Origin: Candidatus Peregrinibacteria bacterium
GTDB lineage: Bacteria; Patescibacteriota; Gracilibacteria; UBA1369; UBA12463
NCBI GenBank assembly: GCA_037447365.1
Contig: JBBIGU010000001.1
Location: forward strand, 9,670 to 73,669
Direction: 5' to 3'
DNA: 64,000 nt
Shown here piece after piece: positions 4,986 through 60,500 of this stretch. The translations under genes were made by a program, and so were the position numbers. Each line of letters starts with the position of its first letter. The stretch's first letter is position 1. Under the pieces are notes generated by a model. That model searched no databases and had not been told where the DNA came from. It saw only the letters and a list, made by a program, of their open reading frames with translations.

Positions 4986-6191
4986 TTAGTATTTCTTGGA
5001 TATTGAGAGCGATGATAACGCGATTAGTATAAACATAAATGCCGCTCCATACCAAACTCCATTCATTCCAAAGCTGGAAAGTAGGATAGCGCCGAGAGTT
5101 GGCGCGATAATATAAGCGATTGGATATGACGCGTTATAGATGCCATAAAATCGTTCTTCATCTTCCTGTCGCACAATTTTGAAGAAGAATAATTCTTTGT
5201 TTGGTTCGATGAAGGCGGCTCCAATGTTCACCAAGATCATGAGTTTGATGAGTATGTCCGGTGTGCTCATTGTAAAAAGTAGGAGCGATATACTCAGAAG
5301 TACATATCCCCATATAATATATCTTCGAATGCCGAATTTTTTTGCTCCATCAGTGGCATGAAACTCGAGAAGAACTAGCGGAATCACGCTGAGCGAGATG
5401 ACGAGACCGATAACTGCCTGTGAATATCCTAAATTACTCAGGGCGAGAGGTATGTAGATAGAGCTAATTGACCACCAGAAGAAGAGACCAAATGAGATGA
5501 GAAATGCCTGACGAAGCTCCTTGATTTTTACGTAGTCGCTTACATTTTTCCAGAATGTGAACTCAGAGTTCGGAATAATTTCTTCTTTTTTATGATGAAG
5601 ATGTGGATTTTTTGCGACCAGATTTTGGTGGAAAAAGATTGCGACAAGTATGAGGTAGCATACAGCTGCAAATATAAGAGCTGCCTCGTTTCCGTAGGTT
5701 CTTGCGAGAAGTCCACCGGCCATTGGTCCGATTATCCAGCCAATATTCGTAAAGAGGTAGAAACGTCCTTCGGCGAGTGCTATCTCTTTTTCTTCAGCAT
5801 AATCGTGCACGAAAATTGCGAGAATGATAAAAAAGAGCGTGATGCAAATCACGCGCATGATGTCGATAGCTGCAAAGTTGTAAATGCTTGATGCAAATGA
5901 AAGTCCGACGAAAGCGATGGACAATACACTCAGGATAACTTTTGTAATTGCTACTTTGGAAAATCGCTTGAGGAGGACAGAGCTTGAGAGCGATACAATT
6001 AACGAGATGACGGCAATTCCAGAGTAGTAGTAACCGATGTGAGTATCGTTGTGGAGCTTTTCTGAAAGAATGATTGGGAGCATCGTGAGAAAACTTGCAT
6101 ATCCGATACTCGAAAGCAGCGCCATCCAGGCGAAGATTCGTCCGTCGGGCTGCTTGTGGTGTGTTCCAATTTTTTCAGAAGATACGTGCAT
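4986..6191 (-). CDS. MFS transporter
   Basis: 401 aa with about 12 hydrophobic segments in a 6+6 arrangement and a central loop. Confidence 0.75.
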   Translation of the reverse strand: MHVSSEKIGTHHKQPDGRIFAWMALLSSIGYASFLTMLPIILSEKLHNDTHIGYYYSGIAVISLIVSLSSSVLLKRFSKVAITKVILSVLSIAFVGLSFASSIYNFAAIDIMRVICITLFFIILAIFVHDYAEEKEIALAEGRFYLFTNIGWIIGPMAGGLLARTYGNEAALIFAAVCYLILVAIFFHQNLVAKNPHLHHKKEEIIPNSEFTFWKNVSDYVKIKELRQAFLISFGLFFWWSISSIYIPLALSNLGYSQAVIGLVISLSVIPLVLLEFHATDGAKKFGIRRYIIWGYVLLSISLLLFTMSTPDILIKLMILVNIGAAFIEPNKELFFFKIVRQEDEERFYGIYNASYPIAYIIAPTLGAILLSSFGMNGVWYGAAFMFILIALSSLSISKKY

Positions 6192-8481: not shown

Positions 8482-8658
8482 ATTTATTTACGTGTAGATT
8501 TTTAGGTGAGCCTTCACTCACTGTATACAATTGTTATGCAATAACTAAAAAGTTGTGCAATTTTATCTGTGTAATGCTGTTTTTGATTCTAGGATTCGAA
8601 AAAGCACATAGAATCTCTTTTTGTGTACAGTTTTTGTGCACAGTTTTAGGCAAACGCA

Positions 8659-10419: not shown

Positions 10420-12996
10420 ATGGCTTCAAATACTGTTTCTTTTGCTTCTCGCGATATTCTTCCTTTGATTGATCAGCTTGGTAGTACTCGAGTTTCGCTC
10501 GATCCTGCTTTGCAAGGGGAGTTAGATAGTGTTCGAAGTCAGTTGGGTCTTACGGAGACAGAGGGTCGTCCTGAAGTTCCGGATGCCATTATAGTGAGTC
10601 AGCGACTTGATCAGCTTTTGAGGGATGTTCGAATGCTTCCGCAGGGTGTTGGAGATGCTTGTCCAACAAATGATGATATTCAAATTGTCGATAATCTCTC
10701 ACTTCGTGGTTCATTTGATGAAATTGCAGCTGGGCTTTTTTCGATCATAGCTCAAGATGGTTTTCATGCTGCTTCTGATTACTATAATCGCCTTGCAATA
10801 TATGATTCCAGGCAAGCTGCGTTTATCTGGAATGCATATATCAATCATCCTGAAATTGCACCTGTTCTTTCTCGGATTGCTGATATTCTTGCACAATCTA
10901 TCCCTGGATCCGATCTTTCCGATCAACAGAAAAAAGAGTTGGCCTATGCTGATATTCAAAAAAATCTTACCCATCTTCCTTCTCAGTATATTACTGCAAA
11001 AACCCCTGCAATGATTTTGCTCGGACGTGTTAAACGAAGTCTTATTGGTTCGTTTATGCATATTGTTACCGATAAGATTGCCGTCGGAGATATGCCTCTT
11101 ATTGCAGGAGGTGAGTTGGTAAAAAATCCGGAACTGTTTCAAAAAAGTTTTGAAGTTGCCGGTTTATTTGAAGACATGGATCAACTTGCATACATGGATA
11201 TGCTTAATAATCCTCTTGGACAAGCGCAAACTGCGAATCCAACTCAGGCTGAGTCGTACTTCCGTCAGCGTGAGGCGATCCCTGAAATGAAGGTTCATAA
11301 TAACTTTGGATACGTGTATTTGAGCCTAGCACAGGCAGAAACGCTTGGATTAAATCCTCAGAAGGACGCCGTTTTTCCATTTAGTTATTACAATGAACAG
11401 TATGTTGCTGTTCCTGCTGGTTTGTATTTCTCAAAGAAGTCTCCTGATGCATTCCGGGCATCTATTGGTCATCTCCATGCTCTTGCTGATGCGTATCCTG
11501 GAACACCTGCTGAAGAGTATTATAACTCTTTGATCGCTTATTATATGTGCGGTGTTGATGAGTCAGCGAATGCATCAGATTCAAAAGATTCAAAAGCTTT
11601 CGTGAAGCAGTATTATGATTTGTGTTATGCATCTGAGCGAGCTTGGGTTCGCTATATTGCTTTTGCAGAAAAAGAACAGCATCAGTTTATTCATATTCAT
11701 CCTTTTGAAAAGTACAGTACAGTTTCTACGAAATCACACGATCTTTCTCTTGGTATTACTAATCCTGCAGAGACGGCGCAGTATGTTGAAAGTAAGCAGC
11801 GTTTTCAGGAAAATGCTTCGAGATTTTTTGAACAAACAGGTATTACTGAGAAACATCCTGAGATGATTGCGGAGACAAGTCGGCTTATTCAGTCTGCCGG
11901 AACAATTTCTCTTAGTGCGCGCTTTTTCTCTGCTATTCCTGGAACGCTCGCTCAAAATATTCCTAACGAAGAAGATGGTCGTCAGGATGGAATTGTCGCA
12001 CTTTTTGATACTGCGTTTGCGAAGGGTGCTATTAAATCTTCTCGTGGACAGGTAACTCGAAGAAGCGATCCAGTTGGTGTTATTGCGGATACGTTCGATC
12101 AGGATATCGACGTTCCGGAGAAATTTATGCTGCATTACATCGGCGTCGTTCTTTCTCATGAACTTAATCATAATGCGTACAAAGGACGTGAGGGAAGTTT
12201 TCAGAGTGATGGTCATGGACTTGAAGTTAAGCTTATCGAAGAGGCAAAAGCTACTGTTGGAATGGCTCTTGCATTTAACGATCCTTACAATCTTTCAGAG
12301 TCTGATCTCACCGAACTTCGATCTTCGATTCTCTTGATGGCAACTTGGTCGATGATGCGACTTCGTCCGCAGTTACGGGCTCAATACACATCTCATCAGT
12401 ATTTCCGTGAGGGTGCCGTGATGCTTGATCATATGATGAAGTCTGGTCTTGTTAAGGTCGTTGGAATGGGGTTGCAGGAAGATGGTAATTTCCAGCCAGT
12501 GAGTGATGCAGGACTTGATGCTGCTGATTTTGAGTTTTTGAGATTTGATTTTACCGATGATGTTTTGAAAGATTTTATTCGACGTTGTGCAGATTTTCTT
12601 AAAGAGCTTTCTGAGCCGTATTATGAAACTCAATTCAAGCCAGATGCTTCGCCTGATAGAGTCGTTCCTGATGTCACGTCTGTCGACTTTTGGCAGGCTC
12701 TTTTGAGAACGTGTTACGATGAGGATATTGCCAAGAAGAGGGCTAATCCAAAATCTACTCCGTCAGATATTGCTGGGCTTGAGGCACGAAAAGATGCAGT
12801 TCGTCTTCCTGCTGATCCTGATATGCTTCCAAAAGTGAGGGCACTTGTTCGCTACTCAGACTTTAGCTCTGTTCAGCGTTTCCGTCAGGCTGTTGCACGA
12901 CAACATCATATTGATCTGACCGATCCATCTCTTGATGAACACGTGAAAGCTGCTCAACAAAAAATTCAGTCAATGTATCCGGCGATTACTGGCTGA
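10420..12996 (+). CDS. large cytoplasmic zinc-metallopeptidase-like protein (HExxH; M49/DPP III-like signature)
   Basis: 858 aa. HELNH at 12157-12171 (aa 580-584) is followed 22 residues later by EEAKAT at 12238-12255. That resembles the two-motif M49 signature. No signal peptide. Confidence 0.6.
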   Translation: MASNTVSFASRDILPLIDQLGSTRVSLDPALQGELDSVRSQLGLTETEGRPEVPDAIIVSQRLDQLLRDVRMLPQGVGDACPTNDDIQIVDNLSLRGSFDEIAAGLFSIIAQDGFHAASDYYNRLAIYDSRQAAFIWNAYINHPEIAPVLSRIADILAQSIPGSDLSDQQKKELAYADIQKNLTHLPSQYITAKTPAMILLGRVKRSLIGSFMHIVTDKIAVGDMPLIAGGELVKNPELFQKSFEVAGLFEDMDQLAYMDMLNNPLGQAQTANPTQAESYFRQREAIPEMKVHNNFGYVYLSLAQAETLGLNPQKDAVFPFSYYNEQYVAVPAGLYFSKKSPDAFRASIGHLHALADAYPGTPAEEYYNSLIAYYMCGVDESANASDSKDSKAFVKQYYDLCYASERAWVRYIAFAEKEQHQFIHIHPFEKYSTVSTKSHDLSLGITNPAETAQYVESKQRFQENASRFFEQTGITEKHPEMIAETSRLIQSAGTISLSARFFSAIPGTLAQNIPNEEDGRQDGIVALFDTAFAKGAIKSSRGQVTRRSDPVGVIADTFDQDIDVPEKFMLHYIGVVLSHELNHNAYKGREGSFQSDGHGLEVKLIEEAKATVGMALAFNDPYNLSESDLTELRSSILLMATWSMMRLRPQLRAQYTSHQYFREGAVMLDHMMKSGLVKVVGMGLQEDGNFQPVSDAGLDAADFEFLRFDFTDDVLKDFIRRCADFLKELSEPYYETQFKPDASPDRVVPDVTSVDFWQALLRTCYDEDIAKKRANPKSTPSDIAGLEARKDAVRLPADPDMLPKVRALVRYSDFSSVQRFRQAVARQHHIDLTDPSLDEHVKAAQQKIQSMYPAITG

Positions 12997-13085
12997 TTTT
13001 AGCCTGCTCTCCCGTTGACTTTCCCCTGCGTTCCGCTAACCTAATGGCGACCTCTTTTGAGGCACATTAGCATTAACTTTTCTCT

Positions 13086-14147
13086 ATGATTGATTCATCG
13101 AAAGTTGCAGAACTTGCCAAGGTTGCGAAGCAGATGGTAGCTCCGGGTAAGGGTATTTTGGCTGCGGATGAAAGTATGAAGACGGTTGGAAAGCGATTTG
13201 CATCTATTGAACTTGAAAATAACGAAGACAATCGCCGAGCGTTCCGTGAGATGCTTCTTACGGTTCCTGGTGAGGCGCAGTACATCAGCGGAGTTATTTT
13301 GCACGATGAGACGATTCGACAGACGATGGCTTCTGGAAAGACATTTGTTGCTGCGTTGCAGGAGGCTGGAATTCTTCCGGGAATCAAGGTTGATCTTGGT
13401 CTCGTAGAAGTTGGCAGTGAGAAGTTGACGACTGGTCTCGATGGACTCGACGCTCGTTTGAAAGAGTACGTCGCGCTTGGTGCGAAGTTCTGTAAGTGGA
13501 GGTCGGTGATTACGATTGCTGATGATGGATCAACTCCAACTGAAGAGAATATTCGTCAGAATGCGAAGGATCTCGCTGCGTACGCTTTGGTCTGTCAGGA
13601 AAATGGCCTTGTTCCAATGGTTGAGCCAGAGGTGTTGCTCGATGGTGCACACACACAGGCACAGGCGGAGGTTGCAAGTGAGAGGATTTTGACAGCGCTT
13701 TTTGAAGAGCTGGCTGCCGTTGGTGTTGCACTCGAAGGAACGATTTTAAAGACGAGCATGGTATTACCGGGAAAAGATTCTGGTGTGAAGGCTTCGCCAC
13801 AGCAGGTTGCAGAAGCGACACTTCGAGTGTTTAAGAAGTGTTTGCCTGCAAATCTTGCAGGTGAGGCGTTTCTTTCTGGAGGACAGGGTGACACCGAGGC
13901 GACTGAAAATCTCAATGCGATTAATCAGGACAAAGCGTTGCCATGGCCTTTGAGTTTCTCGTATGCTCGAGCGCTTCAGGACGCTGCTACGAAGACTTGG
14001 AAGGGAAGTGCTGCGAATTTGGAGGCAGCTCAAAAAGTTTTCCTTCACCGCGCAAAGATGAATAGCCTCGCTTCGCTCGGCCAATATTCATCCGACATGG
14101 AACAGAATTTTGTTCCTGAAACAGGTGCAACCGTCACTCAGGATTAA
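13086..14147 (+). CDS. fba: class I fructose-bisphosphate aldolase
   Basis: GKGILAADES, the LEGTILKTSMV Schiff-base lysine region and LSGGQ are typical of class I (eukaryote-type) FBA. Confidence 0.9.
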   Translation: MIDSSKVAELAKVAKQMVAPGKGILAADESMKTVGKRFASIELENNEDNRRAFREMLLTVPGEAQYISGVILHDETIRQTMASGKTFVAALQEAGILPGIKVDLGLVEVGSEKLTTGLDGLDARLKEYVALGAKFCKWRSVITIADDGSTPTEENIRQNAKDLAAYALVCQENGLVPMVEPEVLLDGAHTQAQAEVASERILTALFEELAAVGVALEGTILKTSMVLPGKDSGVKASPQQVAEATLRVFKKCLPANLAGEAFLSGGQGDTEATENLNAINQDKALPWPLSFSYARALQDAATKTWKGSAANLEAAQKVFLHRAKMNSLASLGQYSSDMEQNFVPETGATVTQD

Positions 14148-49336: not shown

Positions 49337-50251
49337 ATGAAAACTTTAACACATATTACTGACGTAGGTTCATCTGCACATGATGGTGTCGATTCGAGTG
49401 AGCGAATTAGAAAACAATATTTGAGATTGGGCGTTGAGCCAAGAGTTGTAACTGCTGGTCAATCTCCTTTGCACGTTGCTTTCACTGCTTGTACTGATGT
49501 TTCCTTGAAGGCTCGGGAAAATGTTCAAAAGGTATTAGATCTACTTCAAATAAGCAAATCGGCCTTGTTGCCAACTGCACTTAATAGTGCACCAAGAAAT
49601 GTTGCTAAATCCCAGGCAAATGGACAAGAAGATTATATTTATAGGGTAAGTTCTGGAAATAAAATTGATGAAACATTTCTTATCTATGGGCCTGAAGTGT
49701 TACGATGGGTTTTGGTCTTTCGCGGTAGGGCTGGAGTGGTGGTTGAAAAAATTACTGAAATTCATGGTGTTATTCCAAATACATCGAATGGATCTCAATT
49801 TCGATCTGCTGAACATTTACCTTTAGTACATTTTCTCGAAGTGCATGGAAAGCTTTGCGAAATGTCCGAAAGACAGCCTGTCGAATTAAATGCAATTCCT
49901 GATATCTCTCCGGATGATGGTAGTGTTGTAGTTGTTCCTCCTGATGAGTATGGCAATGGGCGAATTGTAGCTAGGATTGGTACTTTCAGTGAGGTTTTAG
50001 AAAGAAATCGGATTGAAATTGCTGGAATTTCTCCGCGATCTATCGCCGTTAAAAAATCTTTGACCGAAGTTGTTCCCGGTGTGCTTTCTATTTGGCCAAG
50101 CTCAAATCATTTTCCTGATGAAACCCTTGGGGTATTAAATATTGGTACTAGATGGAGTAGTGGGTCAACAAAAACAACAAATGAAGAGGTTATTCAATTA
50201 TCGAAAAGACTCTCTAATCAAGTCGGTGAAAGGCATAGGGTTAAAACTTAA
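49337..50251 (+). CDS. hypothetical protein, 304 aa
   Basis: A long ORF with no competing frame. No recognised domain. Confidence 0.65.
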   Translation: MKTLTHITDVGSSAHDGVDSSERIRKQYLRLGVEPRVVTAGQSPLHVAFTACTDVSLKARENVQKVLDLLQISKSALLPTALNSAPRNVAKSQANGQEDYIYRVSSGNKIDETFLIYGPEVLRWVLVFRGRAGVVVEKITEIHGVIPNTSNGSQFRSAEHLPLVHFLEVHGKLCEMSERQPVELNAIPDISPDDGSVVVVPPDEYGNGRIVARIGTFSEVLERNRIEIAGISPRSIAVKKSLTEVVPGVLSIWPSSNHFPDETLGVLNIGTRWSSGSTKTTNEEVIQLSKRLSNQVGERHRVKT

Positions 50252-50414
50252 AAACTTGTGAAATCAGAAAAGTCAAATATGTTGCGAGCAGACTTGTATT
50301 AACTTTTCGAAGCATTGCTAACCCGTTCTTTATATTTTCTTATATTACGCCTTGCTTCATCCAACTATTTTTGATCTCCCGTTTTTTGCACAGAATCATT
50401 CAGTGAATCGCCGG

Positions 50415-51065
50415 TTAGGCTTTGTTCTTTAATACTTTTGCGAATCTCATGACTCCGTAGAGTATGAGTAAGCTTCCGACTGTTGTGTTTAATATTTGAA
50501 TGAGGGATGTTGGCACCGTTTTCTTTACTAATGAAAATACGATTACTGATGTTCCCATGAATAACAAGGTTGCGAGTCCTACCGACAAGCCAAATATGAG
50601 CAACTCTCGTTTTGTGTAATTATATTCAATCGCTTTTGCTGTGAATAAACTTGTATACCAAATAATAGTCATTGGGCTGGAGATGGTGAGTAGAAAAGTT
50701 GCAGAAAAGCTCGCAAGAAGGCTTGAAGACTGAATAACTGAGGTCGTTGAAATGTTTGCACCTGATACACCTTTGACAATGATCAGTCCGAAAATAACCA
50801 AGACAACTGAACTGATAATTCCGAATGCTTTTTTGATATTCTTTTTTTCGAGCAACTTCCCAATGCCAAGAATGGCGAGTGATATGTACAATACATCTAC
50901 GAGCGTAACTGCTGCTACAGCAACAAGTCCATCGTAAATCGACCTCTGCAATGCAAGGTTTATGATGAAAAAGAAAACTGGACCAATCGCCGTTTGAAGT
51001 ATCAGCCCTGTTAGTAATCCATTTGCGAATACTCTCATGGTTTTATTATAGCTGTTTTCAAGCAT
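50415..51065 (-). CDS. LysE/RhtB-type amino-acid exporter family protein
   Basis: LLTGLILQTAIGPVFFFIINLAL ... LVDVLYISLAILG and six hydrophobic segments. I chose the start at M24 (or M33 at 51038), because the track start at 51134 would read through palindromic element E1. Confidence 0.7.
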   Translation of the reverse strand: MLENSYNKTMRVFANGLLTGLILQTAIGPVFFFIINLALQRSIYDGLVAVAAVTLVDVLYISLAILGIGKLLEKKNIKKAFGIISSVVLVIFGLIIVKGVSGANISTTSVIQSSSLLASFSATFLLTISSPMTIIWYTSLFTAKAIEYNYTKRELLIFGLSVGLATLLFMGTSVIVFSLVKKTVPTSLIQILNTTVGSLLILYGVMRFAKVLKNKA

Positions 51066-51068
51066 GGC

Positions 51069-51184
51069 ATCTAACGTTTCGGCATATACGATGTTTGGTA
51101 GGGCTATAATATCGCGAAGCGGTAGCCCTGCCAAATATGGGCGGAGCGACCATCGGGAGCGTAGCTGTATATGCCGTGTTATAT
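51069..51184 (-). repeat. attC-like nested palindrome E1 (116 bp)
   Basis: The gene strand reads ATATAAC-A-CGGCATATAC ... inner hairpin TTGGCAGGGCTA/TAGCCCTACCAA ... GTATATGCCG-AAAC-GTTAGAT. It is homologous by eye to E2 and E3. Confidence 0.6.
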
Positions 51185-51192
51185 GCTGTAAG

Positions 51193-51804
51193 CTAAAAAG
51201 GACTAAATTCTCCTAATTCTAAATTATTATTTTGGGCGATAGATTCTAAATTCTTTTTAAATACATAAAAATCCTCGGCGTTTTTAATGCTCGAAAATTC
51301 TGATTTTAAAACCAGTCTTTCATGTTCATCAACATATGGGCTGACTATGCTAATTGATTTTTCTGAATATGTGATTATTTGGTTTACATAACTGTACTCC
51401 ACAATAAATATATACAAAAAAGCGATAGCGAAGATTGAAATGAAACATGTGAAATAATAACCCTTCTTAGATTTTATAAAATTTGAAATTGCAATATCCC
51501 ATTTTGATTTTTTATCCTTTACATGCGGATGATGAGTGATCAATCTTTGATATAACATTACTAAAACAAGTATAAGTATTAACATTACAAATAATGATGG
51601 AAATTCATGAAATCCATCCGAAGCTTTTTTGTATATATTGTCTTTATAGTTTAGGAATATATGACTCATCAATTCTATGGTCCATATTCCAACAAAATGA
51701 AAGACTGGTTTTAGTATCCCTTCCCATAGCCCATTACCTATAGCGCCGAGAAATAATGTACCAATTACTCCGAGGCTGTACTTAAGTGTTTTATTTAGTT
51801 TCAT
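51193..51804 (-). CDS. hypothetical membrane protein, 203 aa (cassette-like ORF E)
   Basis: AT-rich ORF with 3-4 TM segments, flanked by 22 bp inverted repeats (51178-51199 and 51809-51830). Confidence 0.65.
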   Translation of the reverse strand: MKLNKTLKYSLGVIGTLFLGAIGNGLWEGILKPVFHFVGIWTIELMSHIFLNYKDNIYKKASDGFHEFPSLFVMLILILVLVMLYQRLITHHPHVKDKKSKWDIAISNFIKSKKGYYFTCFISIFAIAFLYIFIVEYSYVNQIITYSEKSISIVSPYVDEHERLVLKSEFSSIKNAEDFYVFKKNLESIAQNNNLELGEFSPF

Positions 51805-51823
51805 ATAATTTTTAGCTTATGGT

Positions 51824-51941
51824 ATATAACGTCCGCGCATATGCAAAGTTGTTGCGCGGTATAATTTAGCGCGGAGCGCTTCACCGCGCAACAATTTGGG
51901 TGAGCGACTGTAAGGAGCGAACTGCATATGCGCTGTTAAGT
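51824..51941 (-). repeat. attC-like nested palindrome E2 (118 bp)
   Basis: The gene strand reads ACTTAAC-A-GCGCATATGCA ... inner hairpin ATTGTTGCGCGGT/ACCGCGCAACAAC ... TGCATATGCGC-GGAC-GTTATAT. Confidence 0.6.
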
Positions 51942-51948
51942 GATGTGC

Positions 51949-52383
51949 TTATTTCAACTTGATTGAACGATCACTTAATTTTGATTTTTGCCCGTCTTTA
52001 TCGGTAATAAATATATCCTCTTTCGTAATTTCAAATGTGTAAGTGTCATCTTTTGCCACGACGTGGTTTTCTGTTTTTTCAACTACTTCATATTCTTTTA
52101 GATCAAGATTTACTATCGATGATCCAGTAATTACAACTTCTCTTGCATAAAATTTTGAAGATTCACCGAATGACGAATTATCGAAGAAGTGGATGTAAAA
52201 TACTGTATTCCAGTCTTTTGGAGCCTCGTAGTTGATAGCCTCTAAGAAACCATGAGCATCAATTTCATTGAAATTCCATTTTACGTCCTTAGCAACATAT
52301 AGATTTGTCGGTTGAAAAAACAGAAAAAACACATTTGCTACGGCTGAAATTATGAGGGCAAAAATCAAAATTTTCTTATTCAT
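51949..52383 (-). CDS. hypothetical exported/anchored protein, 144 aa (cassette-like ORF D)
   Basis: I set the start at MNKKILIFALIISAVANVFFLFF (signal/anchor); the track GTG start at 52437 lies inside element E3. Flanked by 24 bp inverted repeats (51935-51958 and 52419-52442). Confidence 0.65.
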   Translation of the reverse strand: MNKKILIFALIISAVANVFFLFFQPTNLYVAKDVKWNFNEIDAHGFLEAINYEAPKDWNTVFYIHFFDNSSFGESSKFYAREVVITGSSIVNLDLKEYEVVEKTENHVVAKDDTYTFEITKEDIFITDKDGQKSKLSDRSIKLK

Positions 52384-52435
52384 ATTGTAGTTATTAGGAT
52401 TACTTTGTGAATTGCACTGTTGAAATAAGCATTTC

Positions 52436-52804
52436 ACTTAACGTTCCGGGCTAGCCGATGTTTTGCGGCGGTATAATGTCTGGGCGGAGCCCAACACCGT
52501 CGCAAAATATGGGGGAACGAGTTAAAAAAACGTTTTGAATAGCCAAATAAAAAACATGATATTTCCAGCTATAAATGCGATAAAACCGTACCCGCCAACA
52601 AGTTGCCCGAAATGATGATCTGAGTTCGAGATAGATTTGTCTATCTTTCCATAGTTGTCACTATGCACTTTAAAAATATGAAATGCACTTGCCATACTCA
52701 AAAACCCTATAATTATGAGCAATAATGATTCGACGCCATTCATGTTTTTTTATTGTTAAATAATAAGTTTTTTTAGCTCGCTCACCGGCTAGCCCGTGTT
52801 AAGT
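52436..52804 (-). repeat. attC-like element E3, expanded to 369 bp by an internal insertion carrying ORF C
   Basis: The gene strand reads ACTTAAC-A-CGGGCTAGCCG ... [ORF C] ... inner hairpin ATTTTGCGACGGT/ACCGCCGCAAAAC-AT-CGGCTAGCCCG-GAAC-GTTAAGT. Confidence 0.55.
52522..52743 (-). CDS. small two-TM-helix membrane protein, 73 aa (ORF C, inside E3)
   Basis: MNGVESLLLIIIGFLSMASAF ... GYGFIAFIAGNIMFFIWLF, preceded by an A-rich leader. Confidence 0.5.
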   Translation of the reverse strand: MNGVESLLLIIIGFLSMASAFHIFKVHSDNYGKIDKSISNSDHHFGQLVGGYGFIAFIAGNIMFFIWLFKTFF

Positions 52805-52821
52805 GGTGTGTTTGCCGGGCG

Positions 52822-53463
52822 TCATTTTTTCTTTATCACTGATGTTTCGGAATATTCCCATATTTCCTGCATGGCTTCAGTTGGCATAAGCTCATTGGGA
52901 ATCTCGGCTGGATTTTTCGGTTTAAAAAGAAGCAATTTATGTCCATCTGTATCAGGTATATAACAAAAAATCGCAGATAGCCAGCTTCCTAAAATTTTAT
53001 TGTCCTGTTTAGCTTTTTTCTCTGGGTGAAAGCCGCGTGGACCATTATATATCGTTTTTCCACCTCGTATTACTGTAATCCATGGACCGAATGCAGCCTT
53101 CAATACCATTCGTGAATCTGCATAAGAATCATCAAGAATGAGATATAAAATTTTAGGAAGTTTTGTGTCAAAATCCTTCAATTGTTTTTTTGAGCCATCA
53201 ATTGCGCCTTGAATCGCTTTGTCTATTGTAATTCGATGAACATGTTCTAAGTCACTACTTGGTGAGTATTTGATGAGTTTTATTTCTGCAAGTGCGATTT
53301 TTTGTTTCTCTCGCAAAATCCAGCCGTCGGGTATTGTACCTTTTTTATCTTTTCGAATTTTTCTTAATTTTAAACCCAGCGACGGGAAGAATTTTTTTCT
53401 CAGAAAATCTTCAGCGTATTCGCCACTTTTTTTATGCCAACTGAAGCGTTTTGTTATTCTCAT
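52822..53463 (-). CDS. hypothetical protein, 213 aa (cassette-like ORF B); weak PD-(D/E)xK-like pattern
   Basis: AT-rich ORF flanked by 23 bp inverted repeats (52798-52820 and 53471-53493). IPDGW ... AEIKL could be a PD...ExK nuclease motif (weak, by eye). Confidence 0.6.
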   Translation of the reverse strand: MRITKRFSWHKKSGEYAEDFLRKKFFPSLGLKLRKIRKDKKGTIPDGWILREKQKIALAEIKLIKYSPSSDLEHVHRITIDKAIQGAIDGSKKQLKDFDTKLPKILYLILDDSYADSRMVLKAAFGPWITVIRGGKTIYNGPRGFHPEKKAKQDNKILGSWLSAIFCYIPDTDGHKLLLFKPKNPAEIPNELMPTEAMQEIWEYSETSVIKKK

Positions 53464-53486
53464 AGATTAAGCCCAGTAAACATTTC

Positions 53487-53534
53487 ACTTAACTCAATTC
53501 TATACGAAAACATTTCGTATAGAAAACCTTAATC
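53487..53534 (-). repeat. reduced attC-like/terminator element E4 at the suf-proximal end of the array
   Basis: The gene strand reads GATTAAG-GTT-TTCTATACGAAA-tgt-TTTCGTATAGAA-TTGA-GTTAAGT. The 12 bp hairpin probably also terminates the suf operon. The GTTRRRY box is perfect; the opposite box is degenerate. Confidence 0.45.
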
Positions 53535-53554
53535 CGGCTTTAAATTCCCTATAA

Positions 53555-54085
53555 TTAAAAATTAAACAACATATCTCTCACGTCTGGTTTCATTCTATCG
53601 GGGCTCCAGGCGGGGTCCCAGACGATGACGACGTCGGCGTGGTCGATTTCGGGGACGATTTGGGGGACGAGGGTTTCGATTTGTTCGACGATCATGGGGC
53701 CGACGGGGCAGCCCATGGAGGTGAGGGTCATGGTGATGATGGCGTGGCGTTTGTTGAGCGTGACGCCATAAATGAGGCCGAGGTCGACGATGCCGATACC
53801 GATTTCTGGGTCGATGATTTCGTTGGTGGCGTCGACGATTTTTTTGACGATAGGATTTTCAGCGCACTGTTCGTCGAGAGTTTTGGTGAGTGGTTTTGGA
53901 TTTTTTTCGTGATCGATGCGCTTCTGGAGGTCCGGGCCGAAGACGGATTTTGGAGTTTTTTTGGTAGTAGGTTTTGAGGAGGTTTTTTTTGTTGGTTTGG
54001 TAATAGCTTTTTTAACAGTAGGTTTTTTGGTAACCTTTTTCGTCGTAGTTTTTGTGACTGATTTCTTGATGATTTTCTTGGCCAT
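53555..54085 (-). CDS. sufT: SufT/DUF59 (MIP18-family) Fe-S assembly protein with a Lys/Thr/Pro-rich N-terminal extension
   Basis: C-terminal DUF59: IIDPEIGIGIVDLGLIYGV ... MTLTSMGCPVGPMI. The N-terminal region of about 65 aa is KK(x)T(x)KK-type low complexity. Confidence 0.8.
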   Translation of the reverse strand: MAKKIIKKSVTKTTTKKVTKKPTVKKAITKPTKKTSSKPTTKKTPKSVFGPDLQKRIDHEKNPKPLTKTLDEQCAENPIVKKIVDATNEIIDPEIGIGIVDLGLIYGVTLNKRHAIITMTLTSMGCPVGPMIVEQIETLVPQIVPEIDHADVVIVWDPAWSPDRMKPDVRDMLFNF

Positions 54086-54086
54086 A

Positions 54087-54473
54087 TTATTGGTGTTTCA
54101 AAAGAATGAGAGCTTTTTTCAGGAGAGAATAGGAGAGGAGGGCGCATTTGACGCGGGCGGTACTGAGGGGGACGCCGAGCATTTCGTAGATCGTTTCTTT
54201 GGTGATGTTTTCGGCGTCTAGGAGGTTTTTTCCGTAGAGTTCTTCGGCGATCATCGACATGGCGGCTTGAGAAATGGCGCAACCAGAGCCTTCAAAACCG
54301 ATGTCTTTGATGACTGGATTCTTTGGGTTGGTGCTGTCGATCTGAAGAGCGAGTTTGAGTTTGTCACCGCAAAGTGGATTGGCGTCTTCGAGTTCGATCG
54401 TAGGCGTGATGATAGCGCCCTTGTGACGAGGATGTTGGAAGTGGTCGAGAATGTTTTCTGCGTACATGTCCAT
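54087..54473 (-). CDS. sufU: SUF-system NifU-family scaffold SufU
   Basis: ILDHFQHPRHKG, NPLCGD, GSGCAISQA and RVKCALL (three conserved Cys). Adjacent to sufS. Confidence 0.88.
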   Translation of the reverse strand: MDMYAENILDHFQHPRHKGAIITPTIELEDANPLCGDKLKLALQIDSTNPKNPVIKDIGFEGSGCAISQAAMSMIAEELYGKNLLDAENITKETIYEMLGVPLSTARVKCALLSYSLLKKALILLKHQ

Positions 54474-54494
54474 ACTGAGATGGTGTGAGTTGGA

Positions 54495-55757
54495 TTAGTT
54501 TACGTGAAATGTTTCGAGTACTTTTTTGATCGCGTCGATGGCTGCATCGACGTCTTCTTTTGTGTTGTAAATGTAGAAACTCATGCGTGCTGTTGAGCTG
54601 ATCTTGAGCTTCTCCATGAGAGGTTGGGCGCAGTGATGACCTCCACGAATGGCAACTCCTTCGCTGTTGAAAATTTCTGCGATGTCGTGTGGATGAACAG
54701 AAAGTCCTGGAACGGAGAGATTTGAAAGTTCAAATGAAACGATTCCGGTCATTTGTTTGGTGTCGCGTGGGGCGTGGACTACGACCTGCGGAATTTTTGC
54801 GAGTCGTGATTTTGTGTAGGCCACGAGCTCTTGGTCGTGTGCGAGGACGTTGTCGAGGCCAAGTTTTTTGAGATAGCGAAGAGCTTCTCGGAATGCGACC
54901 ACGTCAGCGATATTTGGTGTGCCCGCCTCGAACTTCCAAGGGAGGTCGTTCCAGGTTGATTCATACTGATGAACTTCGCGAATCATATCGCCACCGAAAA
55001 GGAATGGAGGCATTTTTTCGAGGATGGATTGTTTTCCGTAGAGAACGCCGACACCTGTTGGGCCGAGCATTTTGTGGCTTGAAAAAGCGAGAAAGTCTGT
55101 GTCGAGATATTGGACATCGATTGGCATATGTGATGCAGATTGCGCTGCGTCGATCAGCGTGACGGCGCCATGTGCGTGGGCAATGTCGATAAATTCTTTT
55201 ACCGGAACGATCGTTCCTGTCGTGTTACTTGCCTGCGTAATCGCGAGAAGTTTGAGTGAGCTGTCGACATTTTTTCTAAACCATTCGAGATCGAGTGTGT
55301 AGGCTTTTTCTGGGTCGTCCGAGAATGGAATTACTTTGAGAGTGGCACCTGTTTTTTTGGCTAATTGCTGCCAAGGAACGAGGTTGCTGTGATGTTCGAG
55401 TGTGGAGACGATGATCGTATCACCCGCGTGAATATTTTCGGTACCCCAAGTATAGGCGACGAGATTGATACTTTCTGTGGTGTTACGTGTGAAGATAATT
55501 TCTTCGAGTTGTTTTGCGTTGATGAACTTCCGAACTTCTTCGCGTGTGCCTTCGTAGGCGAGCGTTGCTTCTTCGGCGAGTGTGTAGACCGCGCGGTGGA
55601 TGTTCGCGTTATGTTGTGTGTAATACTTCGTGAGTGCGTCGATAACTGACTTCGGTTTTTGGCTTGTAGATGCGTTATCCAAGTATACCAAACGACGACC
55701 ATCGAACTCGCGGGCGAGAATAGGGAAGTCTTGTTGAATGGTTTTTGGATCGAACAT
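54495..55757 (-). CDS. sufS: cysteine desulfurase SufS
   Basis: YLDNASTSQKP, the FSSHKMLGPTGVG PLP lysine, and the RGGHHCAQP catalytic Cys loop. Confidence 0.93.
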   Translation of the reverse strand: MFDPKTIQQDFPILAREFDGRRLVYLDNASTSQKPKSVIDALTKYYTQHNANIHRAVYTLAEEATLAYEGTREEVRKFINAKQLEEIIFTRNTTESINLVAYTWGTENIHAGDTIIVSTLEHHSNLVPWQQLAKKTGATLKVIPFSDDPEKAYTLDLEWFRKNVDSSLKLLAITQASNTTGTIVPVKEFIDIAHAHGAVTLIDAAQSASHMPIDVQYLDTDFLAFSSHKMLGPTGVGVLYGKQSILEKMPPFLFGGDMIREVHQYESTWNDLPWKFEAGTPNIADVVAFREALRYLKKLGLDNVLAHDQELVAYTKSRLAKIPQVVVHAPRDTKQMTGIVSFELSNLSVPGLSVHPHDIAEIFNSEGVAIRGGHHCAQPLMEKLKISSTARMSFYIYNTKEDVDAAIDAIKKVLETFHVN

Positions 55758-55773
55758 TGTGTCGTGAGTGTGA

Positions 55774-56124
55774 TTATTCTGTTGGAGTTTCGAGGAGTTT
55801 TTCTTGATCTTCTGCTGGCGTTTCTGGAATATCTACCATAACCATGCCGTTTTCGATTTTTGCTGGATAGGTTTTGAGAGGGGAGACCGCTGGGAGACTG
55901 AGGACGCGTCCATCAACCATATCGAACATGGATCCATTTGGACATTCAATAATTGAACCTTCTAGGTGACCCTGAGTTAGATCTTCGTTGTCATGAGTGC
56001 ATGTTTTTTGGGTTGCGTAGATGTTGCCATTCACGTTGGCGATCATGAGATCGATGTCGTTAACTGTGAAGGCAGTTTTGTTGCCAGGAGTAAGTTGTTC
56101 GATTGAGATAGTTGCACTAAACAT
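55774..56124 (-). CDS. Rieske-fold [2Fe-2S]-like protein with an incomplete ligand set
   Basis: CTH (55993-56001) is present, but the second box reads CPNG (55933-55944) instead of CPxH. The remainder (GSMFDMVDGRV) aligns with the usual HGxxFD. Confidence 0.7.
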   Translation of the reverse strand: MFSATISIEQLTPGNKTAFTVNDIDLMIANVNGNIYATQKTCTHDNEDLTQGHLEGSIIECPNGSMFDMVDGRVLSLPAVSPLKTYPAKIENGMVMVDIPETPAEDQEKLLETPTE

Positions 56125-56158
56125 AGAGAAGGGGATAAGGGTTGCGCGTAGTATACGC

Positions 56159-56815
56159 TTATGTTAGGGATTTTTTAAGACTTTCTCGAAGGTCGTTGGC
56201 GATTTGTGTGTCAGAAATTTGCATGAGCATTTCTTCAAAAAATCCTTCGATCATGAGTTCGCGTGCTTGCTGCTCGTCAAGTCCGCGTGATCTGAGGTAG
56301 AAGAGTGCCTCCTCGTCAACTTGGCCTACTGATGCGCTGTGTCCGGCTTTTACATCGTTGGCTTCGATCTCAAGTGCTGGGACAGATTTCGACTTGGCCT
56401 GTTTGGAAAGAAGCATTGTGTCGTGAGAAAGTTGACCATCATTTCCGGTGGTATGTTTCTCGATTCGAATGAGTCCGAAATAGTCGGATTTCGCCTCGTC
56501 CCGGAGAAGTGTTCTGACGTTGGTATGTGCGGTAGTGGAATTTCCCGAGTGAATCGTTCGTGTTTCGAATTTCACCTGGTCGTGATTTTTCCCTGCGAAT
56601 AAGCCATAAATTCGAGCCTTGCTGTTATCACCTTTGAGCTCGAATTGGATGATGCTTTTTGATGATGCGGTTTCTTGTGATTCCACTGGCGCGTCCTTGA
56701 ACGACATAATATATTCAATCTCGGCGTTTGGTTCGAGAATGATCGTGTGTGATCCTGGTTTGTCCTGGAAGATCAGCTGTTTTTTGTTGGCGGGGATGGT
56801 GATGGTTTGAGTCAT
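56159..56815 (-). CDS. sufD: Fe-S cluster assembly protein SufD (short, 218 aa)
   Basis: Beta-helix/C-terminal SufD-like region (LEIEANDVKAGHSASVGQVDEEALFYLRSRGL). It sits between sufB and sufS. Confidence 0.8.
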   Translation of the reverse strand: MTQTITIPANKKQLIFQDKPGSHTIILEPNAEIEYIMSFKDAPVESQETASSKSIIQFELKGDNSKARIYGLFAGKNHDQVKFETRTIHSGNSTTAHTNVRTLLRDEAKSDYFGLIRIEKHTTGNDGQLSHDTMLLSKQAKSKSVPALEIEANDVKAGHSASVGQVDEEALFYLRSRGLDEQQARELMIEGFFEEMLMQISDTQIANDLRESLKKSLT

Positions 56816-56866
56816 AATTTTGGTTAAGAGGGGACGGGAACGGGAACAAAGTGTGGGCCGCTTCGC

Positions 56867-58282
56867 TTACCCCACACTCCCTTCCATTTCGAGGGCGATC
56901 AGGCGGTTAAGTTCGAGAGCGTATTCCATTGGGAATTCTTTGATGAGTGGTGCGAGGAATCCATTGACGATCATGTTGCTGGCTTCTTGTTCGGAGAGGC
57001 CGCGAGACATGAGATAAAATAACTGCTCTTCGGAAATTTTCGTGACGGTTGCTTCGTGTGCGATGGCGACATTATTTTCGTCGATCTGCATCGTTGGGTA
57101 GGTGTCGGTAGAGGATTCCGTGTCGAGAAGAAGTGCGTCGCATGTTACGCGAGAACGGCTTCTTTCTGCGCCTGGAGCGACTTGCAAGAGTCCACGATAT
57201 GATGTTCGTCCACCACGAAGTGAGATAGATTTTGCGTTAATCACCGAAGATGTATCTGGTGCGAGGTGAATAATTTTTCCACCGGCATCTTGGTGTTGAT
57301 CTTTGTTGGCCATGGCGATCGAGAGAATTTCTCCGCGTGCACCTTTTCCACGTAAATAAATACTTGGATATTTCATCGTAAGTTTTGAGCCGATGTTACA
57401 GTCGAGCCACATCATCGTCGCGTTTTCGTGGGCGATAGCGCGCTTCGTAACGAGGTTGTAGACGTTACGTGACCAGTTTTGAACGGTGGTGTATTGAACG
57501 CGTGCGTCCTTGTGAACGACGATTTCAACGACGGCTGAGTGTAATGAATTTGTTGTGTAAATCGGTGCGGTGCATCCTTCTGTGTAGTGAACGGACGAGC
57601 CTTCTTCGGCGATGATGAGGGTTCGTTCGAACTGTCCGGCATTCTCTGCGTTGATACGGAAGTAGGCCTGAAGAGGGAGTTCGACGTGCACACCTTTTGG
57701 AATGTAGACAAACGATCCGCCGCTCCATACTGCGGAATTCAGCGCTGCGAGCTTGTTGTCTCGTGGTGGGACAACGGTTGCGAAATATTTTCGTACGAGG
57801 TCTGGATATTTCTGAACGGCTGTATCGGTGTCCACGAAAATCACCCCTTTTTCTTCGAGATGTTTTTGAAGTGAGTGATAGATTGTTTCACTTTCGAACT
57901 GTGCGCCAACACCTGAGAGAAACTTTCTCTCGGCTTCTGGAACGCCCAATTTATCAAAGGTATTTTTAATCTCCTGCGGAACGTCGTCCCAACTCTTTGC
58001 CTTGTTTCCGCCCGGCTTGATGTAGTAGTAAATATCTTCAAAATCGATGTCCTTGAGATACGAACTTCCCCAAGTCGGCATCGGTTTCTCTCGATAGATT
58101 TTGTAGGCTTTAAGCCGAAAATCGAGCATCCATTCTGGTTCTTTTTTGTGCGCAGAAATCATTCGCACGATTTCTTCCGTGAGGCCTTTTTCTGATTTGA
58201 ACTCGTACTTTTCCTCGGTTTTGAAACCGTATCGATAGTCAGTGAGCTGCTGTGTAATTTCTTTTTGCTGTTTGGTTGCCAT
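56867..58282 (-). CDS. sufB: Fe-S cluster assembly protein SufB
   Basis: 471 aa, including YRYGF, EGCTAP and [22 protein letters not shown]. Confidence 0.95.
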
Positions 58283-58312
58283 GAAAATCTTGGTTGTAAT
58301 ATTGTCTAAAAA

Positions 58313-59083
58313 TTAAGCCGTCACTTCGGTTGATTCGGTAATAAACTTTTCATATCCGCTCGCCTCAACTTCTTCAACGAGGTCCATTTTTCCTGTCTTT
58401 ACAATCTTTCCTGCTGACATGATATGTACGAAATCTGGCTTAATGTAGTTCAAAATTCGCTGGTAGTGCGTGATAAGTAACACTCCACATTGCGTATCTT
58501 TTGCAATTGCCATTGCGCCCTTCGCAACAATTTTCAATGCATCGACATCGAGACCAGAGTCAGTTTCATCGAGAATAGAGAACTTCGGTTCGAAGACCGC
58601 CATCTGCAAAATTTCTGCACGCTTTTTTTCACCGCCAGAAAATCCTTCGTTCACTGATCGTTCGAGGAAGTCTTCGTGGAACTTCAAAATTTTCATCTTC
58701 TCTTTGAGAAGTTTTACGAACTCTGGAATCTTCACTGGTGGTAAACCTTTGGCTGCCAATAAAGCATTTTTTGCCTGTCGTAAAAAGCTCGCATACTTCA
58801 CACCAGGAATTTCTTGTGGATACTGGAAACTCAAAAAGAGTCCAAGTTGCGCGCGTTGATTCGGTTCCATCTCGGTAATACTCATCCCATCGAGTTCGAT
58901 TGTTCCACTTGTGATGGTGTACTTCGGATGACCCATAAGGATGTGACAGAGTGTTGATTTTCCCGATCCGTTCGGACCCATGATCGTGTGAATTTCACCA
59001 GAATTAATCGTGAGAGAAATTCCTTTGAGAATCTCTTTGTCGGCTACCGTAGCGTGTAAATCTTTAATGACGAGCTGTGACAT
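58313..59083 (-). CDS. sufC: Fe-S cluster assembly ATPase SufC
   Basis: Walker A (GPNGSGKST), the ABC signature (FSGGEKKR) and Walker B (ILDETDSGLD). Confidence 0.95.
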   Translation of the reverse strand: MSQLVIKDLHATVADKEILKGISLTINSGEIHTIMGPNGSGKSTLCHILMGHPKYTITSGTIELDGMSITEMEPNQRAQLGLFLSFQYPQEIPGVKYASFLRQAKNALLAAKGLPPVKIPEFVKLLKEKMKILKFHEDFLERSVNEGFSGGEKKRAEILQMAVFEPKFSILDETDSGLDVDALKIVAKGAMAIAKDTQCGVLLITHYQRILNYIKPDFVHIMSAGKIVKTGKMDLVEEVEASGYEKFITESTEVTA

Positions 59084-59540
59084 TGCGTTTTTTGGTTACA
59101 GATTTGATAGGGGATGTGTGAAATTTCTGAATTTTTGGCGTAATAAAGTCCTGAAGCGTGATGCTTGATAATGATTTTTTGAGGTCGTTATTGAGCAGCG
59201 AAAGTCCGTGATGCGTGGTAAATAATTTTTCATTCAAGCATGGGAGTTTTGTTTTTGCTTCGAGTCCGTATGAGATTGATACTGGTCCTTCGAGTGTCTC
59301 GAAAATTTCTCCTAGGGTAACTTCCTGTGGTTTTTTTGAGAGGAAGTATCCGCCTGTTTTGCCTCGAGAAGCCTCTATGAGGCCACTTTTTCGAAGCTCA
59401 TAGGCGATCTTTTGAAGGAACAAAAATGACATAAATCGGCTTTTGGCGAACTCCTTGAGGGAGATGGTCGCCCCTTCTTGCTGCGCCAACTCGATGAGTA
59501 GGAGCAGTCCGTAGTCGATTTTTCGTGATAAATGGAACAT
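59064..59540 (-). CDS. Rrf2 family transcriptional regulator (probable suf regulator)
   Basis: MFHLSRKIDYGLLLLIELA ... IAYELRKSGLIEASRGKTGGYFL. It is the first gene of the suf operon, and its 3' end overlaps sufC by 20 nt. Confidence 0.85.
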   Translation of the reverse strand: MFHLSRKIDYGLLLLIELAQQEGATISLKEFAKSRFMSFLFLQKIAYELRKSGLIEASRGKTGGYFLSKKPQEVTLGEIFETLEGPVSISYGLEAKTKLPCLNEKLFTTHHGLSLLNNDLKKSLSSITLQDFITPKIQKFHTSPIKSVTKKRNVTARH

Positions 59541-60425: not shown

Positions 60426-60500
60426 TGGTAGCACCAACGGGGATCGAACCCGTATTTCCACCTTGAAAGGGTAGCGTCCTAACCATTAGACGATGGCGCC
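60426..60500 (-). tRNA. tRNA-Glu (anticodon UUC), CCA encoded
   Basis: Hand-folded cloverleaf: acceptor GGCGCCA/TGGTGCT (two G-U pairs), D arm GTCT-AATGGTTA-GGAC, anticodon arm CTACC-CT[TTC]AA-GGTGG, T arm ACGGG-TTCGATC-CCCGT, discriminator A plus CCA. 75 nt. Confidence 0.9.

Follow-up and report, generated by a model that had tools for sequence, protein, structure and literature searches.

The minus-strand region 51069-53493 of the 64-kb stretch of DNA analysed here (positions 1-64000, hereafter the window) is, judging from its sequence, a short array of integron-type cassettes without an integrase, i.e. a cluster of attC sites lacking integron integrases (CALIN). Three cassettes, denominated B, D and E after the open reading frames (ORFs) they hold, make up the array. 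The main finding is that every cassette is spanned by a nested series of inverted repeats, which run from its ends through the coding sequence and are predicted to join the whole cassette in one fold. These helices exist and are conserved among homologues. Full-text literature searches returned no account of helices inside cassettes, nor any of integrons in Peregrinibacteria.

Four minus-strand ORFs, spaced by GC-richer elements of about 115 nt each, are found between 51060 and 53500. Cassette B (52798-53493, minus strand), the first of the array, holds ORF B (52822-53463, 213 aa). Cassette D (51935-52442, minus strand) holds ORF D (51949-52383, 144 aa), the product of which has a signal-peptide-like N-terminus. 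Cassette E (51178-51830 from flank repeat to flank repeat, minus strand) holds ORF E (51193-51804, 203 aa), encoding a predicted membrane protein. The fourth ORF, C, lies inside the recombination site of cassette B and is described below. Each of the ORFs E, D and B holds exact inverted repeats of 12-17 nt, with arms 144-542 nt apart: two in E, two in D and four in B. Helix E-2 is formed by 51302-51326 and 51694-51718 (25 nt at 88%, with an exact core at 51307-51323/51697-51713), helix E-3 by 51407-51423 and 51623-51639 (17 nt, exact, and identical in the related locus L007). The two helices of ORF D are both exact over 17 nt: D-2 pairs 51977-51993 with 52356-52372, the latter arm corresponding to ORF D codons 5-10, and D-3 pairs 52067-52083 with 52311-52327. 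Four helices succeed each other in ORF B, namely B-2 (52874-52889/53432-53447, 16 nt, exact), B-3 (52905-52916/53315-53326, 12 nt here and 14-16 in homologues), B-4 (52962-52975/53293-53306, 14 nt, exact) and B-5 (52985-53000/53145-53160, 16 nt, exact). With the terminal helices at the cassette ends, 3-5 nested helices of 12-25 bp are counted per cassette; arms are 140-610 nt apart, and about one fifth of the cassette is involved. Helix arms are perfect and sharp-edged, and the bases bordering them are unrelated.

The confinement of the repeats to the array is strict. All seven non-palindromic exact inverted repeats of at least 14 nt (arms within 1500 nt) present in the window are located inside ORFs E, D and B. 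At this length 2-4 repeats per cassette are observed, versus 0.002-0.1 expected, and the observed counts were reached in none of 1000 dinucleotide or synonymous-codon shuffles. Repeat density is 3.5 per kb in the array and 0.073 per kb, i.e. about 48-fold lower, in 1.29 Mb of other prokaryotic loci. When folded as single-stranded DNA (ssDNA), whole cassettes have z scores of -8.7/-8.4 (D), -4.2/-5.5 (B) and -2.4 (E); scores of the neighbouring genes range from +0.4 to -2.2. Minimum-energy structures close every cassette end to end. Folded in silico as a circle, cassette D gives a rod closed by the duplex of the R boxes, beside a separate attC hairpin.

Conservation was assessed in homologues of B, D and E drawn from more than 10 independent samples and assemblers. 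Among B homologues with 62-83% protein identity, helices are found at the same codon positions and are still perfect, though their sequences differ. Helix B-5, the arms of which start 303 and 463 nt into the ORF, reads CTTCCTAAAATTTTAT in the window, GCTCCCCAAAATTTTAT in L002 and GCTTCCAAAAATTTTAT in L003. Three different Watson-Crick pairs occur at one of its columns (CCT/AGG, CCC/GGG and CCA/TGG), the last at the cost of a Leu-to-Phe change, and such compensatory changes are in part non-synonymous. In seven B-family sequences 85.6% of the cells are paired, versus 39-48% when partners are slid. Sixteen pairs changed on both sides, and the covariation score of 0.168, versus 0.04-0.085, was reached in none of 500 shuffles. 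Third codon positions are variable in 68% of cases in the arms versus 84% elsewhere (p=0.035). D and E homologues behave alike, with compensatory changes such as T>C with A>G in helix D-3 of L009 and G>T with C>A in helix D-2 of L103. Helices are absent from more distant B homologues (37-46% identical) having no attC nearby, and are decaying in L013, a 63% identical B homologue without attC.

The intergenic elements are attC-like sites, one following each ORF. On the ORF strand all three feature an RYYYAAC box at the start and a GTTRRRY box at the end, and are 115-126 nt long. They are imperfect palindromes within the 57-141 nt range of attC sites, with structure conserved over sequence (fold z from -3.5 to -5.4). 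The L stem covaries, as 11 of the 24 pairs predicted by RNAalifold carry compensatory changes. A first screen for attC sites, made by a regular expression and a minimum free energy filter, proved too strict, returning two sites only, and a covariance model (R1), built from five attC-like sites, was used instead to scan the window and related loci. R1 detects in the 64 kb only these three sites, all on the minus strand. Element E1 (51069-51184), the attC-like site of cassette E, scores 118.8 bits, and has R'' ATATAAC and hybrid R' GTTAGAT; its DNA fold is more marked on the plus, or bottom, strand (z=-5.4) than on the top strand (z=-3.5). Element E2 (51824-51941), the attC-like site of cassette D, has R'' ACTTAAC and hybrid R' GTTATAT, scores 113.7 bits (fold z=-5.1), and is 91% identical to one attC of the related array L009. 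In all three sites the bottom strand, complementary to the ORFs, is the more stable one, with bottom/top energies of -30.7/-22.1, -32.1/-29.2 and -30.4/-24.4 kcal/mol. A 3-nt unpaired spacer follows the R box; the canonical extrahelical G/T bases were not identified in these sites. ORFs and sites are co-oriented and coupled in the order B-E3, D-E2 and E-E1, such that sites and cassettes are equal in number.

Element E3 (52436-52804, minus strand), the attC-like site of cassette B, is split by ORF C (52522-52743, minus strand), which encodes a membrane-like protein of 73 aa. R1 gives here a partial match (52436-52552, 33 bits). The E3 boxes, ACTTAAC and GTTAAGT on the minus strand, and the adjoining L boxes (ACTTAAC..GGCTAGCC and GGCTAGCC..GTTAAGT) flank ORF C. 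This ORF is in turn bracketed by its own 42-nt inverted repeat (52512-52553/52745-52786, 71%; GAACGAGTTAAAAAAAC and GTTTTTTTAGCTCGCTC). The unit could be a cassette inserted in the attC variable loop, or two attCs fused by deletion.

The original prediction, formulated on the sequence of the region, held that the two outer boxes of an intergenic element pair less well with each other than with the boxes across the adjacent ORFs. For E1 and E2 the quoted boxes agree with the minus-strand sequence, and the statement applies to these two, the only visibly hybrid elements. It fails for E3, the boxes of which (ACTTAAC/GTTAAGT) are mutually complementary, cassettes B and D having one and the same box. 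Across ORFs E, D and B boxes match in 7/7 positions, and the TTRRRY start of each cassette thus matches the RYYYAAC of its own attC, as had been argued. Complementarity of the 7-bp boxes follows, as in classical integrons, from strand exchange at G/TT, by which a cassette receives at its start the TTRRRY that belongs to its own attC.

Complementarity extends beyond the boxes. The inverted repeats reported to start at GTT on both sides of the three ORFs were recovered by a repeat finder. Terminal helix E pairs 51178-51199, which includes the ORF E stop codon, with 51809-51830, within the 5' untranslated end of the cassette (19/22, 86%). Terminal helix D pairs 51935-51958, again including the stop codon, with 52419-52442 (22/24, 92%). 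Terminal helix B, in which 18/23 identities had been noted, can be drawn out to 28 nt at 75% (52798-52825/53466-53493), and ends at the G of GTT at 53493. Flank similarity is above chance, as supposed: the 17 positions past the 7-bp box match in 15/17 (D), 12/17 (E) and 11/17 (B) cases, with binomial P, at p=0.3, of 1e-6 for D, 7e-4 for E and about 3e-3 for B. Extended flank pairing occurs also in most well-delimited cassettes of the related arrays L009 and L011, and is therefore not fortuitous. The three mismatches of terminal helix E are all G.T wobbles on the bottom strand. A 2-nt bubble is conserved at positions 10-11 after the G, where the 5' arm reads GAAAT and the 3' arm, in reverse complement, GATGT. 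Crossover within GTT, invoked to explain the flank complementarity as a whole, accounts for the box of 6-7 bp and not for the further 15-17 bp; the extension is the outermost helix of the nested series that runs through the coding sequence.

In 92 helices, totalling 1302 bp, six internal mismatches and almost no wobble pairs were found. In the B family, G.T pairs number 26 on the sense strand and 25 on the antisense strand, and the wobble test for the folding strand is thus symmetric inside ORFs. At terminal helices, wobble-type mismatches can pair on the bottom, recombinogenic strand in 17 cases and on the top strand in 3. Structured mRNA would be expected to tolerate G.U pairs on the sense strand. 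Strict Watson-Crick pairing and the lack of a sense-strand wobble excess argue for DNA over mRNA, and ssDNA is favoured as the molecule in which the helices act.

That helices act instead in RNA, long-range pairing of the transcript serving to stabilise the mRNA, or to keep promoterless cassettes silent as in the fold-back inhibition of hok-type messengers, seems unlikely. It would fit the joining, by the terminal helix, of the 5' untranslated end to the stop-codon region, the presence of L009 helices that begin at the start codon (8548-8563, 5915-5929), and the persistence of helices in the L103 homologue of D, which has no attC nearby. The figures just given speak against it, since the wobble-type mismatches of terminal helices are A.C in the sense strand, and pair on the antisense strand only. 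Moreover, the same feature is found in an L009 cassette having the ORF inverted relative to the attC and in ORF-less mini-cassettes, and Rfam gives no matching family.

On ssDNA, each cassette would fold into a rod continuous with its own attC stem. In the excised single-stranded circle the R''/R' duplex would join the attC stem on one side and the cassette rod on the other, and the whole circle would be a quasi-duplex (attC stem, R box, bubble, helices), with the recombination site locked in the folded form. In the chromosome, helices would leave less single strand between the attCs on either side. Published work shows that excision relies on concurrent folding, as single strands, of the attCs on both sides, and that it is affected by how far apart they are (PMC5371416); repeat arms are also known to become uniform and longer through template switching (PMC13100816). 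The two mechanisms supply a plausible function for the helices and a plausible upkeep of the perfection of their arms. The sharp edges and the perfection of arms are most simply accounted for by repeated homogenisation: in the folded single strand, paired arms would switch template or have their mismatches corrected, whether or not selection for function is also at work. The reading of the region as a CALIN in which the flank extension is the outermost of nested helices acting on ssDNA, the arms being kept by homogenisation, is held with a confidence evenly divided between trust and doubt.

Homogenisation may also operate without any function. Helices would then be a mutational by-product, scars of the cassette life cycle left by template switching on folded ssDNA, or by mismatch correction in hairpins, which perfect quasi-palindromes arisen by chance. 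The process is documented in other systems (PMC13100816), and could explain why arms are perfect and sharp-edged next to random flanks, and why helices turn over between lineages: some homologues have them, in L011 and L013 they have decayed, and L103 has acquired new ones. As a full account it is improbable. Positions of the helices are kept across the 62-83% identical homologues, arms show reduced synonymous variability, the bubble of the terminal helix (positions 10-11) is conserved across unrelated cassettes, and about 20% of each coding sequence is given to helices despite the cost to the protein.

Several observations weigh against the rod-like ssDNA fold as a functional trait of an integron array. 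The window has no integrase or attI (tblastn with IntI1), and the array is at most putatively active here. Ten of the 17 bottom-strand wobbles fall at one recurrent position (11), and are not independent across cassettes. As long as a cassette sits in the array, its terminal helix and the R-box pairing of the two neighbouring attC hairpins are mutually exclusive, and the helix might there inhibit folding instead of promoting it. Some helices cover start codons (L009 8548 and 5915), which also suits translational control at the RNA level. A D homologue 69% identical, found in L103 (9984-10415) between genes with spacers of 17-20 nt, has kept ACTTAAC as a remnant, along with three internal helices that are perfect, of which one is specific to its lineage, with no detectable same-family attC nearby; helices therefore persist, or get renewed, outside a recognisable array. 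Lastly, the negative control consists of two classical cassettes only, and no sedentary integron from outside the candidate phyla radiation (CPR), such as that of Vibrio, entered the comparison. These two, the class 1 integron cassettes blaIMP-1 and aac(6')-IIa, show nothing comparable to the nested helices or the flank extension.

The same organization is found on a larger scale in L009. Most cassettes of this array of about 10 kb have nested exact repeats of 13-28 nt, and R1 identifies at least 13 co-oriented attC sites (E<=0.05). The helix-bearing cassettes encode unrelated proteins (PALP, abhydrolase, S66 peptidase, AAA_33, DUF4440 and ORFans), and the cassette at 11312-11962, the ORF of which is inverted relative to the attC, has the same helix architecture. 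No nested repeats were found in the adjoining 8 kb of cell-wall genes. A mini-cassette of about 106 nt without any ORF is also repeated within L009 (9834-9942, 10518-10626 and no fewer than four other copies); it is made by a 34-nt hairpin (GTTGTGACGAAATCGCTTCGCTTCTTCGTCACAAC) followed by a second attC type of about 72 nt that R1 does not detect.

No tyrosine recombinase was detected in the 64-kb window by tblastn with IntI1, and the array is therefore classed as a CALIN. A recombinase is encoded in L024, a Candidatus Peribacteria metagenome-assembled genome (MAG; CALREA010000008.1), at the corresponding position after the SUF operon (12245-13129, minus strand, in divergent orientation), and is succeeded by cassettes whose attC sites belong to the same family as those of the window. 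The protein is a tyrosine recombinase of 294 aa, 34% identical to IntI1. Its best NCBIfam match is the integron integrase model TIGR02249 (201.9 bits, under the cut-off of 265), and about 48 aa of the IntI-specific additional domain are missing. The motif TAAAGCCG..TTCGTATAGAA..AGTTA precedes the first cassette both in the window (53494-53540) and in L024 (14030-14062). In the window it falls in the junction between SUF operon and array (53494-53554, minus strand), together with a terminator-like hairpin (CTATACGAA..TTCGTATAG). The comparison of these two sequences is suggestive of 53494-53554 as a candidate attI-like site. A scan of a genome collection with SufS revealed no close relative; the nearest SufS matches are those of Candidatus Peribacteria and Peregrinibacteria MAGs (62-64% identity), and the window is therefore placed in the CPR. 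A bolder proposal, advanced tentatively and with more doubt than trust, is that these elements form a distinct CPR integron lineage, with a compact IntI-like recombinase devoid of the IntI-specific domain and cassettes selected as rod-shaped circular ssDNA paired over almost its full length, in which the structure of the whole cassette would be part of the substrate for recombination or persistence. The attC stem would run via the R box and the conserved outer bubble into the helices of the coding sequence, correction within the folded strand would keep the arms perfect, and protein evolution would be measurably constrained as a consequence.

The ORFs had been described as discrete mobile modules. 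This is borne out by homologues of B, D and E residing in unrelated contexts, next to relA, yebC-ruvC, a Memo-family gene (PF01875) or a NUDIX gene, or within long arrays; a homologue of E 87% identical (P0028) is found in other contexts in L007 and L008. Cassette boundaries fall at G/TT as anticipated, since nucleotide homology of B starts exactly at the G of GTT (53493); it starts at 52443 for D and at 51837 for E. Where a cassette stands alone, as in L003 and L007, its only attC is the one at the 3' side, and no attC half is found upstream of cassette B, which fits ORF-plus-attC cassettes exchanged at G/TT.

Two further explanations of the repeats are confronted with these data. The nested repeats might be intragenic invertons, flanking coding segments that are inverted to recode or switch the proteins. 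Repeats are indeed perfect, 12-17 bp long and inside genes, and recombination could maintain arm identity. This is a most remote prospect, because each repeat pair differs in sequence, leaving no common recombinase site, about 20 homologous genes are all colinear with no inverted segment, no antisense ORF of at least 40 aa crosses the inter-arm segments, and the outermost pair falls on cassette ends and R boxes. The original prediction had alternatively viewed each ORF as a unit bounded by terminal inverted repeats (TIRs), resembling a miniature inverted-repeat transposable element (MITE), inserted into a repeated palindromic target. In favour of this view, the flank repeats measure 22-28 bp, and blastn homology among B cassettes ends with them (53493 to 52797). 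We consider this view highly improbable and set it aside, since a palindromic half-site is lacking upstream of B, the single insertions of L003 and L007 have only a 3' attC, and attCs are asymmetric and co-oriented with the ORFs. Furthermore, no target-site duplications (TSDs) or direct repeats occur at the flanks, homology of E and D extends 20-45 nt into the attC, and the L024 array is accompanied by a tyrosine recombinase and not by a transposase.

Although base composition is biased towards AT (35-36% GC) and a few arms have low sequence complexity, chance or faulty assembly as the source of the repeats has a negligible probability in view of the shuffles and background density given above, of the 100% identity of 49342-52929 to an independently assembled Logan contig, and of the covariation in homologues from more than 10 samples and assemblers. 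Looked up as exact products, ORF E was on record, whereas ORF B and SufS were not.

The region resembles integron arrays and CALINs in many respects. R'' RYYYAAC and R' GTTRRRY boxes flank an imperfectly palindromic L stem in elements of conventional length, one co-oriented attC with a hybrid R' box follows each ORF, attCs are alike within the lineage, as the Vibrio cholerae repeats (VCRs) of Vibrio, ORFs are mostly ORFans, and cassettes occur in differing contexts. The window differs from a complete integron in lacking an adjacent intI gene with the IntI-specific additional domain, attI and the cassette promoter Pc, and the L024 recombinase is devoid of most of the IntI-specific insertion. 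It differs also because pairing runs 15-17 bp outward past a 2-nt bubble and continues into nested helices in the coding sequence; to our knowledge, neither trait belongs to the description of integrons. Extensive intramolecular pairing over coding sequence, compensatory changes and a predicted rod-like circle recall ssDNA replicons and viroid-like rods. Unlike these, the elements described here are non-replicative chromosomal cassettes of 0.5-0.7 kb, pairing is in discrete perfect blocks, and the circular form is a prediction. Perfect sharp-edged arms with unrelated flanks, and the concerted evolution of arms, are shared with products of quasipalindrome correction and template-switch homogenisation. 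Known cases of quasipalindrome correction are short-range hairpins, whereas arms are here 140-610 nt apart, nested, positionally conserved and confined to cassettes. With MITEs and other TIR elements the cassettes share terminal inverted repeats of 22-28 bp bracketing a small unit, but they have no TSDs, do not form a multicopy family of near-identical members, encode a protein, and feature repeats beginning at the crossover box and a one-sided attC.

Integron recombination is understood as the recognition of a folded single-stranded attC hairpin, the cassette body being passive cargo. Here the cargo bears a conserved, covarying fold, physically continuous with the recombination site. If functional, this fold would be direct evidence, at the sequence level, of cassettes selected as single-stranded entities, and a second code overlapping the protein-coding sequence. 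Nested perfect repeats bracketed by GTT...AAC would provide a signature for cassettes in metagenomes, and integron-like systems with an unusual integrase would extend into the CPR.

Products of ORFs B, C, D and E had no match in Pfam, PHROGs and PDB-sequence searches. A PD-(D/E)xK assignment of ORF B would rest on a PD..E-x-K-like motif seen by eye only. A complete SUF operon for iron-sulfur clusters (53555-59540, minus strand) is located directly upstream of the array, which begins, 60 nt past the final gene of the operon, with the G of GTT at 53493. The operon includes sufB/C/D-like genes, sufS, and genes encoding a NifU-like scaffold and a FeS_assembly_P protein with a Lys/Thr-rich N-terminus. 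A tRNA gene is found beyond it (60429-60500), and is the only element of the window reaching the gathering score in an Rfam 15 scan. At the other end, a gene encoding a LysE-family transporter (50415-51134) abuts the last attC (R' GTTAGAT). It was considered as a cassette of the B/D/E kind and rejected, since it has neither a downstream attC nor internal inverted repeats, and its fold z is +0.24; the array probably borders on the chromosome at this gene. Beside it, a low-GC stretch contains a plus-strand ORF of 304 aa (49337-50251) with no Pfam or PHROGs match. The cumulative GC skew climbs almost monotonically over the window (1-64000), independently of gene orientation. The whole window thus seems to lie on one replichore, with a G-rich plus strand, and, if so, attC bottom strands would be on the lagging-strand template.

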